NCBI GenBank assembly: GCA_965368975.1
Contig: CBDUPA010000017.1
Location: 86,325-150,324 of the forward strand
DNA length: 64,000 bases
DNA from: an uncultured bacterium
GTDB lineage: Bacteria; Acidobacteriota; Thermoanaerobaculia; Multivoradales; JAHZIX01
Direction: 5' to 3'
The notes under the pieces were generated by a model that made no database searches, was not told where the DNA came from, and saw only the letters and a list, made by a program, of their open reading frames with translations. The translations under genes and the position numbers were made by a program. This document shows positions 1 to 1,998 of the stretch, one piece after another. Each line of letters opens with the position of its first letter. Positions within the stretch are counted from its first letter, which is position 1.

Positions 1-1998
1 TCGATTCTGAGAGATTCCTTCGATCAAGTTTATGTCTGCGTTACTGGCAGACTTGAGGCGATTGGTATTAGTCAGCTTCTTCAGATGTTCCGCCGATGTT
101 GAGTCGCGATTGACGACCAGTAGCTCGATCTCAAGACCGAAGGTTCTGGCCACAGGGCCCAGACTGCTAGCGAACAATTCAACCAGTTGAGATTTTTGTT
201 TCCACGTCCTGAAATGCAGGTATTGGGGGGGAAGTGTTGCGAGCCGTTCACGTAGGCCGGCGCCTAGAACTTCCTCAATAGCTTCTGTTTCTTTCTCAGG
301 AGAGCCGTAGTTCTTTGATAAGAAAATGTGCCAGCCTTCTGATAGGACGCTTCGAACTTGATAGACAATGCGGTAGGTGACGTTCTCCGATGTTTCATCT
401 AGATTGTGCGGTTCAACGGTGAGTTTGAAGCTGCGATGTCGTCGGCACAGTTCGGTGATGCGTTCTGTGATGCGATCTTCCTGCATCCTGAAGACAATCT
501 GGATGTCGTCGGCACTGACGCGTGTAGAAAGGCGCTGTACGATTTGCTGTTGGATCTCATCTGCCACAGACTGCGTCGCGCTGAGTTCTGGCATGTTGAA
601 ATGAAGATAGAATTGCTTAGGTGTGACAGAGTGAAGTGCCTGCTCCGCCCCTTCCTCTGCTTGTGTCCGAATCAGATTCTTGATCTGGGCAGTGGGAGTG
701 AGTAGGCGTTCAATTTTGCGAAGATCAGGGATACGGCCAGTCACGACTAATCCCATATTGACCGATACTCTGGGATCGGACGTTGCATAGGACCGTGATG
801 ATTCGACCTTGAATCCATCGCGTTGAATGACAAGGGGTTCTAGGTCGGTAAGAACGACATGGTGTTTGATCGTGTAACCGAGTGATTCCGCTCGATGCTT
901 GACCGCAGTCTTGATTTGCTCAGCTAGCTCCGTAAAATCAAGCAGTAGGCCGACATAGGTCTTATCAAAAAGATGGTCTTGGATGACGCCTACAACTTCA
1001 GTGTTCCACCAGGCGTCGAGTGATTCAAAGCCGCTTCGCTCCCAGAGTCCCGAATTGCGCAGTCTTAGGCGGATGGTGTTGTGTACTGGGATCTTGGTCT
1101 TAGTACCTCGAATCGTGCACTCAACTGTGCGCTCGATCTCGAGAGTTCTTGCTTCAGGAGTAGGAGCGTCACTGTGGAGTTTCAGGTAGCTGACCTGACG
1201 GCCGTACTTGGCCAAGGTTCGATCTAGGCTCACTAGCACCTTGTCGCGGAGTCGTTCGGTACGTTCGAAGTGGAATTCATGGAGCGTTACTGCTTGCTGG
1301 AAGAAGCGCTGGAGGGATTCTTTGACTCGAACCCCAAGCTTGTGTTCGTCCCTTCGAAGCAGTAACGCCTGCAGCTCCCCGTTCTGAGCAACATCAAGGG
1401 TTGTTGTGACCTCAAGACTCAGCGCGTCATCGTTGTCCATGACCCGAACTGAGAAGGCTTCGATCGTGAGATTGATTGGTTTGAGCTCACCGCCAGCCGG
1501 GCGAATCTGGCACTGAGCCAGAAGCCCTGCTTCCTCAATAAGATGTGTGCACAGATCCTGTTCAAGATAGTCGCGCAGTTTTGAAAAACTCTCAGATGGC
1601 TCTGAGCTTCTTTGACTTCGTGCGCGATGTTGCTGCTCTAATCGACGTGCTACGAGTTTGTTCAGAGCCAGGAGGGTACTGTCATCGCTGGCAAGGCATT
1701 GAACAAGCGTGTTCTCTCTGTTGGGCGCGCACTCAAGGAATAGTTTAGCCTCTAGCTCCAACGATCGACCGTCGAGTCTCTTCAGAATGACCGCATCGGT
1801 AACGAGTTCGACTTGAGATTCTGTGGAAACTAAGTAGTACCGGACTTCTCGCCATGGCTGAAGGATTGGAGGCTTCGGGAGTACCCGACGGTGCCGAACG
1901 TCGAATATCAGGATCTTGCCTACGATGCTCGGGGAGCCCTTCCGCGAACGAGAGGGTACTCGGCGAATCAATGTGTCGAGAGGCTGGATACTGCTCAT
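1..1998 (-). CDS. Tandem SPFH/Band-7-like multi-domain protein (>666 aa, 3' end beyond window)
   Basis: Manual translation: ATG at 1998 with AGGGAG RBS, 11 nt after the upstream stop; open frame to position 1 (MSSIQPLDTLIRRVP...LIEGISQNR). About five 100-120 aa modules with the SPFH pattern, e.g. VRVMDNDDALSLEVTTTLDV...VKESLQRFFQQAVTLHEF..ERTERLRDKVLVSLDRTLAKYGRQVSYLKL and YATSDPRVSVNMGLVVTGRIPD. The ORF is certain; the SPFH assignment is pattern-based. Confidence 0.75.
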   Translation of the reverse strand, partial: MSSIQPLDTLIRRVPSRSRKGSPSIVGKILIFDVRHRRVLPKPPILQPWREVRYYLVSTESQVELVTDAVILKRLDGRSLELEAKLFLECAPNRENTLVQCLASDDSTLLALNKLVARRLEQQHRARSQRSSEPSESFSKLRDYLEQDLCTHLIEEAGLLAQCQIRPAGGELKPINLTIEAFSVRVMDNDDALSLEVTTTLDVAQNGELQALLLRRDEHKLGVRVKESLQRFFQQAVTLHEFHFERTERLRDKVLVSLDRTLAKYGRQVSYLKLHSDAPTPEARTLEIERTVECTIRGTKTKIPVHNTIRLRLRNSGLWERSGFESLDAWWNTEVVGVIQDHLFDKTYVGLLLDFTELAEQIKTAVKHRAESLGYTIKHHVVLTDLEPLVIQRDGFKVESSRSYATSDPRVSVNMGLVVTGRIPDLRKIERLLTPTAQIKNLIRTQAEEGAEQALHSVTPKQFYLHFNMPELSATQSVADEIQQQIVQRLSTRVSADDIQIVFRMQEDRITERITELCRRHRSFKLTVEPHNLDETSENVTYRIVYQVRSVLSEGWHIFLSKNYGSPEKETEAIEEVLGAGLRERLATLPPQYLHFRTWKQKSQLVELFASSLGPVARTFGLEIELLVVNRDSTSAEHLKKLTNTNRLKSASNADINLIEGISQNR

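Follow-up and report, generated by a model that had tools for sequence, protein, structure and literature searches.

A 64,000-nucleotide stretch of DNA from an uncultured bacterium (Acidobacteriota, Thermoanaerobaculia, Multivoradales, JAHZIX01; GenBank assembly GCA_965368975.1, contig CBDUPA010000017.1, positions 86,325 to 150,324 of the forward strand), hereafter the window, begins inside a minus-strand gene, gene C, whose modelled product contains five tandem SPFH2-type domains. SPFH proteins are known as cage builders with one SPFH2 domain per chain and are involved in membrane organisation and protein quality control. With five to eleven SPFH2 domains in a row, the gene C family, which comprises 491 clusters, has an architecture that is new, and it may plausibly be the bacterial counterpart of the stave of the vault. 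Gene C is preceded by genes for a protease (gene A) and a STAND-fold protein (gene B), and this conserved operon looks like an undescribed, probably anti-phage, multi-gene conflict system. We assign a probability of about 0.5 to the reading that C is a five-domain SPFH scaffold and the core of such a system, in which it would act together with the effector A, the inactive STAND protein B and an envelope-facing module. The positions of all features are given in Table 1.

Gene C and its protein family

Gene C is missing from the list of open reading frames (ORFs) of the window, as the initial annotation had pointed out. It is a real gene, which is skipped only by ORF lists that omit frames truncated at an edge. 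The frame starts with an ATG at 1998, is preceded by a GGGAG Shine-Dalgarno-like site and stays open up to the left window edge. The full-length protein of 763 amino acids (aa) is present in the protein collection, and all 666 residues encoded in the window are identical to it. An artefact or shadow ORF is ruled out by the protein family, the ribosome-binding site and the confidence of the model.

A homologue search without word seeds revealed the 491 clusters (50% identity, E up to 0.001), 163 of them at E 1e-30 or better, and the best 150 relatives are 22-38% identical to the query, the query itself excepted. Word-seeded searches with C and with B each returned just their own query protein, and no match was found in the plasmid collection searched. 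All relatives carrying a source name (10 of 28 rows) are called "hypothetical protein". In the ESM Atlas, the closest cluster (score 0.93) has 97 members and 751 aa; it is nameless, and Band_7 is present on 14% of its members; the recognition value for C lies below the threshold of the atlas, and this cluster is regarded as a lead only. Three library proteins (P0074, P0135 and P0136) are members of the family with a C-terminal vWA fusion or with extra N-terminal domains, among them one HATPase_c_4 match and one domain that is TIR-like by eye.

Five SPFH2-type modules

In the structural model of C, DSSP assigns five modules of the order beta-beta-alpha-alpha-alpha-beta. The initial annotation had placed five SPFH-like modules from the sequence, and the boundaries in the model agree with these positions within about 10 residues; the four module-end motifs it had listed (EEAGLLAQC, AKYGRQVSYL, ESLGYTIKH, RTFGLEIELL) were all found, and the helical tail it had expected corresponds to a modelled helix. 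This long helix is present behind module 5 only. A second helix, aa 690-708, falls outside the window.

The initial annotation had also predicted internal repeats and an SPFH fold. The repeats are invisible in the single sequence, where none of the ten module pairs scored above shuffled sequences (p 0.17-0.97), and become visible at the level of profiles, where hhalign gave E values from 7e-7 to 0.022 for all ten pairs, nine of them at 0.0035 or lower. Eleven control pairs, in which a terminal segment (N or C) was one of the partners, gave E 0.033-0.50. The fold is seen by structure comparison, in which consecutive prohibitin domains map onto the consecutive modules 2 and 3; no row of this comparison covered aa 1-59, nor module 5 alone. 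Taken together, the hhalign profiles, the DSSP model and the structure comparison argue for five tandem SPFH/Band-7-type domains, and by its modelled fold C is a true member of the SPFH superfamily with a new multi-domain architecture.

Sequence comparisons recover little of this. The window protein has no SPFH match in Pfam, PADLOC, NCBIfam or the PDB sequences, and the profile of the family finds no SPFH entry among the PDB sequences. At the gathering score, Band_7 (PF01145) is absent from the window protein and is reached by 7 of 20 long relatives and 1 of 75 single modules. The conserved stretch of module 4 reads PKQFYLHF in the window protein and PERFYMRF in many relatives.

Module counts of 6, 7, 8, 9 or 11 occur in 14 of 150 relatives. 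Two loci show near-identical, recent internal duplications: in L023 (10001-13930) modules 2-5 and the tail are present twice, and in L027 (455-3634) module 1 is present three times. A helical insertion of about 50 residues lies within module 5 of the cyanobacterial gene C of L019, L020, L022, L024 and L026. In L015 (7823-11616) the N-terminal part of B is naturally fused to modules 3-3-4-5, and these to a C-terminal domain; P0171, a protein nearly identical to it, has PF05419 (GUN4).

The N-terminal domain and membrane contact

The segment in front of module 1 (aa 1-59) showed no match to Band_7 or to the PDB in a comparison in which the positive control, module 3, failed likewise. Among 120 relatives, 90% have a positive net charge over the first 60 residues, whereas the average net charge of each module and of the helix is negative. 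Within the N-terminal domain, the loop at aa 41-51 is the most basic, not the most aromatic, among nine loops compared, and it contains an aromatic residue in 98 of 121 rows. No transmembrane helix was found in C, whose highest 19-residue hydropathy is 1.09 compared with 2.3-2.7 for the motor proteins described below; a value above 1.6 is seen in 7 of 150 relatives, never N-terminally.

The initial annotation had seen no evident membrane anchor and had suggested a soluble assembly. The lack of a transmembrane helix agrees with this, but the basic N-terminus and the aromatic loop suggest that C binds the membrane peripherally, and the view of a soluble protein without an anchor is not supported. 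An N-terminal transmembrane helix is not obligatory for SPFH proteins, since flotillin has no transmembrane domain, and in known SPFH cages hydrophobic SPFH1 residues touch the membrane (PMC12624060).

Genes A and B and their matched motifs

Gene A ends 1 nucleotide before the ATG of gene B, and gene B ends 11 nucleotides before gene C. The product of gene A is a predicted CHAT/caspase-like protease with a His-Cys dyad, located at His213 and Cys260. The model of B (predicted local distance difference test (pLDDT) score 72.7, built on 25 sequences) starts with a disordered N-terminus and has a STAND fold, with an NTPase-fold domain of alpha/beta type, helical parts, parts resembling a winged helix, and helical repeats. 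Foldseek placed SAMD9 (E 6e-7), Avs4 and NLRP14 on top, with Apaf-1 and CED-4 lower; in VIA, Clp-type AAA+ domains were slightly ahead of Avs5. Because the Walker A motif GxxxxGK[ST] is missing at the P-loop position in all 25 gene B rows, B is regarded as an inactive STAND protein. No Pfam family matches more than one of the 25 members, and iSTAND matches none.

The last residues of A resemble the N-terminal region of B from the same locus. In the window a short motif near the C-terminus of A matches one just before the NTPase-fold domain of B, and the pair consists of VQQQFVASRQNF and IQQQFIASVQRF; it scores 43, is ranked first among 24 B proteins and has a shuffle p of 0.004, with p 0.001 in a second test. 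Across 24 pairs of A tails and B heads the cognate mean is 61.6 and the permuted mean 31.5 (0 of 20,000 permutations), and the cognate partner takes rank 1 in 10 cases. Some loci are near-copies, so that the independent cases are fewer than those counted. In cyanobacteria the matching element is a coiled hairpin of 70-80 aa, up to 74% identical between A and B. The 14 motor-type loci, the window included, have the short motif, which is rich in N, T, I, G and V; here the cognate score is 44.0 versus 27.0 (controls p 0.11 and 0.77), and the motif is individually significant (shuffle p < 0.05) in 11 loci.

The tail of C was also considered as a third copy of this adaptor and rejected as weak: the cognate came first in 3 of 23 and in 0 of 23 loci, and the p values of 0.03 and 0.009 are likely due to coiled-coil composition. 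In L020 (6597-7835) gene A encodes a trypsin joined to an extra SPFH module 5, and this module copy contains, as an insertion, the coiled hairpin that matches B. This fusion suggests that an effector may dock on both B and C.

The operon in related loci

A single 8-residue pattern, run once against GTDB genomes, yielded 27 loci, of which 14 are from cyanobacteria, 8 from Acidobacteriota, 3 from Parabeggiatoa, and one each from Flavobacteriaceae and Gemmatimonadales. A gene B homologue lies upstream of, or is fused to, gene C in 26 of them, and a CHAT, trypsin or TIR gene is usually found upstream of B (22/27). Ten of the A genes are of the CHAT type, 9 of the trypsin type, 3 of the TIR type and one of the EAD1 type; in the remaining four loci the gene is unidentified, absent or cut off. 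The functional link of C to its STAND-like and CHAT neighbours, as initially proposed, is supported by a gene order kept across related loci. The exception is L010 (4511-9677), where an iSTAND-MoxR-vWA triad is followed by a protein with modules 3-5 fused behind an unrelated N-terminal part and ending in these modules and repeated hairpins. Two small genes lie between B and C in L004 and L005. In the same two loci the MotB-like gene looks interrupted (8724-9250 and 14052-14951, respectively), and in L026 (7818-9982) gene B is split; either decay or an assembly error may account for this.

Downstream of C two alternatives were observed. Thirteen of the 27 loci encode a MotA-like protein of about 500 aa with a long tail, together with a MotB-like protein. 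PADLOC models of ZorA or ZorB matched 13 of 14 motor proteins scanned (best E 1e-12 and 2e-15), and the transmembrane Asp of the MotB-like protein is kept in all 12 N-termini read. In 12 loci, all cyanobacterial, a ubiquitin-like (Ubl) fusion stands in the place of the motor; for six of these fusions a transmembrane segment is likely. A quick tree of 27 rows, from which L010, L015, L025 and L027 were excluded and in which L023 was trimmed, places the window protein together with six motor-type loci, and with none of the Ubl type, in a group of 99% support. On the basis of this grouping motor genes are expected downstream of the C gene of the window, and the sensor in its lineage would probably be a ZorA/ZorB-like proton motor.

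Several loci carry additional genes. Trypsin-like protease genes follow the motor pair in L008 (14321-15298) and L017 (8780-9757), and pentapeptide plus CHAT genes in L016 (14392-16608) and L018 (10899-13106). In L011, L022 and L026, Ubl-transmembrane-ARC6/IMS genes downstream of C are followed by a VanY-type D,D-carboxypeptidase gene, which hints that the variant found in cyanobacteria is connected with the cell wall. The idea that cage height tracks how long the tail of ZorA is was dropped, as L023 has nine modules, yet a motor of ordinary length.

Comparison with known systems

Prohibitin, stomatin, flotillin, HflK/C and Erlin each have one SPFH2 domain, whereas C has five and some relatives 6-11. 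C shares the SPFH2 alpha/beta fold with these cage proteins but differs from them in lacking a transmembrane helix and in being embedded in an effector-STAND operon; in the place of SPFH1 it has a basic beta domain. The first helix after SPFH2 has about 48 residues in C and 101 in Erlin. The major vault protein (MVP) has beta-repeat domains before its shoulder, whereas the repeats of C are the alpha/beta SPFH2 modules themselves, and the window protein matches no Vault or MVP family of Pfam.

Three Zorya types have been described (PMC11890865), and in Zorya I effector recruitment requires ZorB Asp26 and the ZorA tail (PMC11946911). Types I-III resemble the 13 motor-type loci in the long-tailed MotA-like protein and the MotB-like protein with its transmembrane Asp. 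They differ from them in that here the soluble partners are C, the inactive STAND protein and a protease, that the motor has extra N-terminal hydrophobic segments, and that it is replaced by Ubl fusions in cyanobacteria. PADLOC models of ZorC, D, E, F and G gave no match in A, B and C of the window, nor in 10 B and 4 C relatives.

In BASS pairs, which include CHAT and TIR effectors, short motifs at the C-terminus of the effector and the N-terminus of the adjacent NLR are matched (10.1101/2020.01.06.895854); duplicated EAD adaptors have the same layout (PMC7159879, PMC8195603). The A/B motif pair is similar in position and in its N/T/I/G/V-rich composition, as far as can be judged from sequence. 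In contrast to BASS pairs, the NLR-like partner lacks Walker A here, and a coiled hairpin replaces the short motif in cyanobacterial loci.

The MoxR-vWA iSTAND/VMAP ternary systems (Kaur 2020, PMC7159879) likewise combine an inactive STAND, duplicated adaptor domains, peptidase or TIR partners and multicellular hosts, and Band7-like domains fused to vWA are named there as scaffolding effectors. L010 is a locus of this ternary type and is covered by that work. The core operon, in contrast, has no MoxR or vWA, the triad preceding C in 1 of 27 loci; the upstream genes of the window encode CHAT, PIN and MiaE proteins, with no MoxR or vWA among them. A stand-alone five-SPFH protein was not found in the passages and supplements of Kaur 2020 that were searched, and the passages of PMC13086221 showed nothing relevant. 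In the literature, within incomplete subscription and supplement coverage, neither a tandem-SPFH protein nor this operon was found; the architecture tables of Kaur 2020 and 2021 may list relatives.

Proposed function and alternative explanations

As a scaffold, C would bind the cytoplasmic face of the inner membrane by its basic N-terminal loop, and the five domains, one on top of the other, would point into the cytoplasm. Many chains would pack laterally, and the C-terminal helices would close a tall SPFH-type cage or tube. This assembly would be located at an envelope sensor, either a motor or a Ubl-membrane module, and in the lineage of the window probably the ZorA/ZorB-like proton motor with its long cytoplasmic tail. 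Upon envelope damage the scaffold would cluster B. As a nucleotide-independent platform, B would use the matched motif to recruit and activate the CHAT protease, whose cleavage activity would lead to arrest or death of the infected cell. In a bolder version, a vault-like barrel of five-SPFH staves would sheathe a ZorAB-type proton motor on its cytoplasmic side and translate a breach of the envelope into STAND clustering and amyloid-templated activation of the caspase-like protease. This would amount to a fourth, NLR-wired Zorya-like immunity and a membrane-tethered bacterial inflammasome; we consider it unlikely.

The initial annotation had proposed that the concatenated chain could pre-assemble a soluble ring or cage. 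The five domains would then be neighbours in a ready-made arc of it, which we consider distinctly unlikely. The linkers are short and tie the last strand of each module to the first of the next, the long helix and the N-terminal domain occur once per chain and not once per module, and the consecutive prohibitin domains match consecutive modules. Together with the freely varying module number and the basic N-terminal domain with its aromatic loop, these features fit a putative arrangement of end-to-end staves better. A homo-trimer prediction for aa 390-715 scored 0.23 (mark 0.42) and speaks neither for nor against oligomers. Alternatively, C could be an executioner or a guarded bait that is cut or remodelled by the protease or by a phage protein and then either assembles on the membrane and damages it or releases B. 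Proteases do occupy the position of gene A in 19 of 27 loci, the recent duplications change the module number as expected of a conflict target, and modules 3-4-5 of L010 directly follow iSTAND, MoxR and vWA, the effector position of Kaur 2020. This explanation is nevertheless improbable, as cleavage cannot be general where TIR (three loci) or EAD1 (one locus) replaces the protease, no cleavage site was identified in C, and neither a transmembrane segment nor any known pore domain is present in C.

It is also quite unlikely that the operon is unrelated to phages and encodes a machine by which multicellular bacteria deal with envelope stress, development or some kind of motility, with C scaffolding a MotAB-type motor as FliL does. 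FliL is indeed an SPFH-fold ring scaffold of MotAB stators (PMC8794807), the MotB-like protein scores about equally on generic MotB/OmpA models and on ZorB, and the cyanobacterial downstream genes contain ARC6-IMS or pentapeptide domains, some of them beside VanY. However, the SPFH part of FliL is periplasmic and C has no hydrophobic segment for export, and conflict systems typically show what is seen here: exchangeable effectors (CHAT, trypsin, TIR and EAD1), matched adaptors, a low-GC island and a patchy distribution, in this case across five phyla.

A number of observations weigh against the scaffold and its place in a conflict system as proposed here. All 27 loci stem from one exact 8-residue pattern, which the window protein itself does not contain. 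The window ends inside C, before the position of the motor genes, the tree is of a quick type, and the window row is a long branch. ZorA/ZorB scores are far under the NCBIfam cut-offs (four proteins tested). ZorAB is missing from 12 of 27 loci, and for six of the 12 Ubl proteins encoded downstream no transmembrane segment is clearly visible, so that the link to a sensor is not universal. Most cyanobacterial B proteins have lost the entire NTPase-fold domain. Three of the 14 loci (L007, L012 and L016) have a motif pair that falls short of significance, the cognate partner is ranked first in only 7 of the 14 short-motif loci, and the motif of B in the window is modelled as a low-confidence helix, not as beta. 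Moreover, only the fold and the operon are shown, and defence, oligomers, membrane binding, cleavage and the wiring of the system are what we infer.

Motors of the Zorya type, NLR/STAND adaptors with matched signalling motifs, and effectors of the caspase-like or TIR kind, three immune themes so far treated apart from each other, come together in this operon. If the proposed function is true, SPFH cages would gain a role in bacterial immunity, and ZorAB-like motors would drive outputs beyond nucleases. The natural swaps between motor and Ubl fusion, short motif and coiled hairpin, and CHAT, trypsin and TIR could serve as ready-made controls.

Features of the window

Table 1. Positions of the described features in the window.
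Feature	Position	Strand	Remarks
Low-GC island with the operon	1..6000		47-55% GC, compared with 56-69% in windows from 6 to 16 kb
Gene C, tandem-SPFH protein	1..1998	-	666 of 763 aa in the window, rest past the left edge; model pLDDT 90.6; 491 clusters
Basic N-terminal beta domain	1822..1998, aa 1-59	-	Sits where SPFH1 does in canonical SPFH proteins; DSSP, net charge
Basic/aromatic loop, candidate peripheral membrane anchor	1846..1878, aa 41-51	-	Aromatic residue in 98 of 121 rows
SPFH2-type module 1	1495..1821, aa 60-168	-	DSSP topology; hhalign to module 2 E 6.6e-7; no Pfam match, no direct structure row
SPFH2-type module 2	1165..1485, aa 172-278	-	DSSP model
SPFH2-type module 3	841..1152, aa 283-386	-	DSSP model
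SPFH2-type module 4	478..819, aa 394-507	-	Most conserved stretch of the family; hhalign; 5 of 15 relatives match Band_7, one of them exceeding the Pfam cut-off
SPFH2-type module 5	100..441, aa 520-633	-	DSSP; hhalign to module 2 E 6e-5; no Pfam match in 15 relatives
Long CC1-like helix after the last SPFH domain	1..96, aa 635-682	-	Model; start only in the window
Gene B, 897 aa	2010..4703	-	Disordered N-terminus, STAND/AAA+-fold domain without Walker A, winged-helix-like region, helical repeats
12-residue motif just before the NTPase-fold domain of gene B	4320..4355	-	Matches the tail of gene A
Gene A, CHAT (caspase-like) protease, 419 aa	4705..5964	-	Pfam CHAT PF12770, E 7.6e-23
12-residue motif near the C-terminus of gene A	4741..4776	-	8 of 12 residues identical to the gene B motif

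No tRNA was found at the edge of the low-GC island. Two PIN-domain toxin-like genes are located at 6130-6729 (plus strand) and 13638-14135 (minus strand), the first of them at the GC boundary adjoining the operon. Farther away, an ECF sigma factor gene adjoins a Ser/Thr kinase-TPR gene (44727-48580, minus strand). The right edge of the window cuts a giant plus-strand gene (50957-64000, more than 4347 aa) with Ig/cadherin-like repeats, which probably encodes a surface adhesin.
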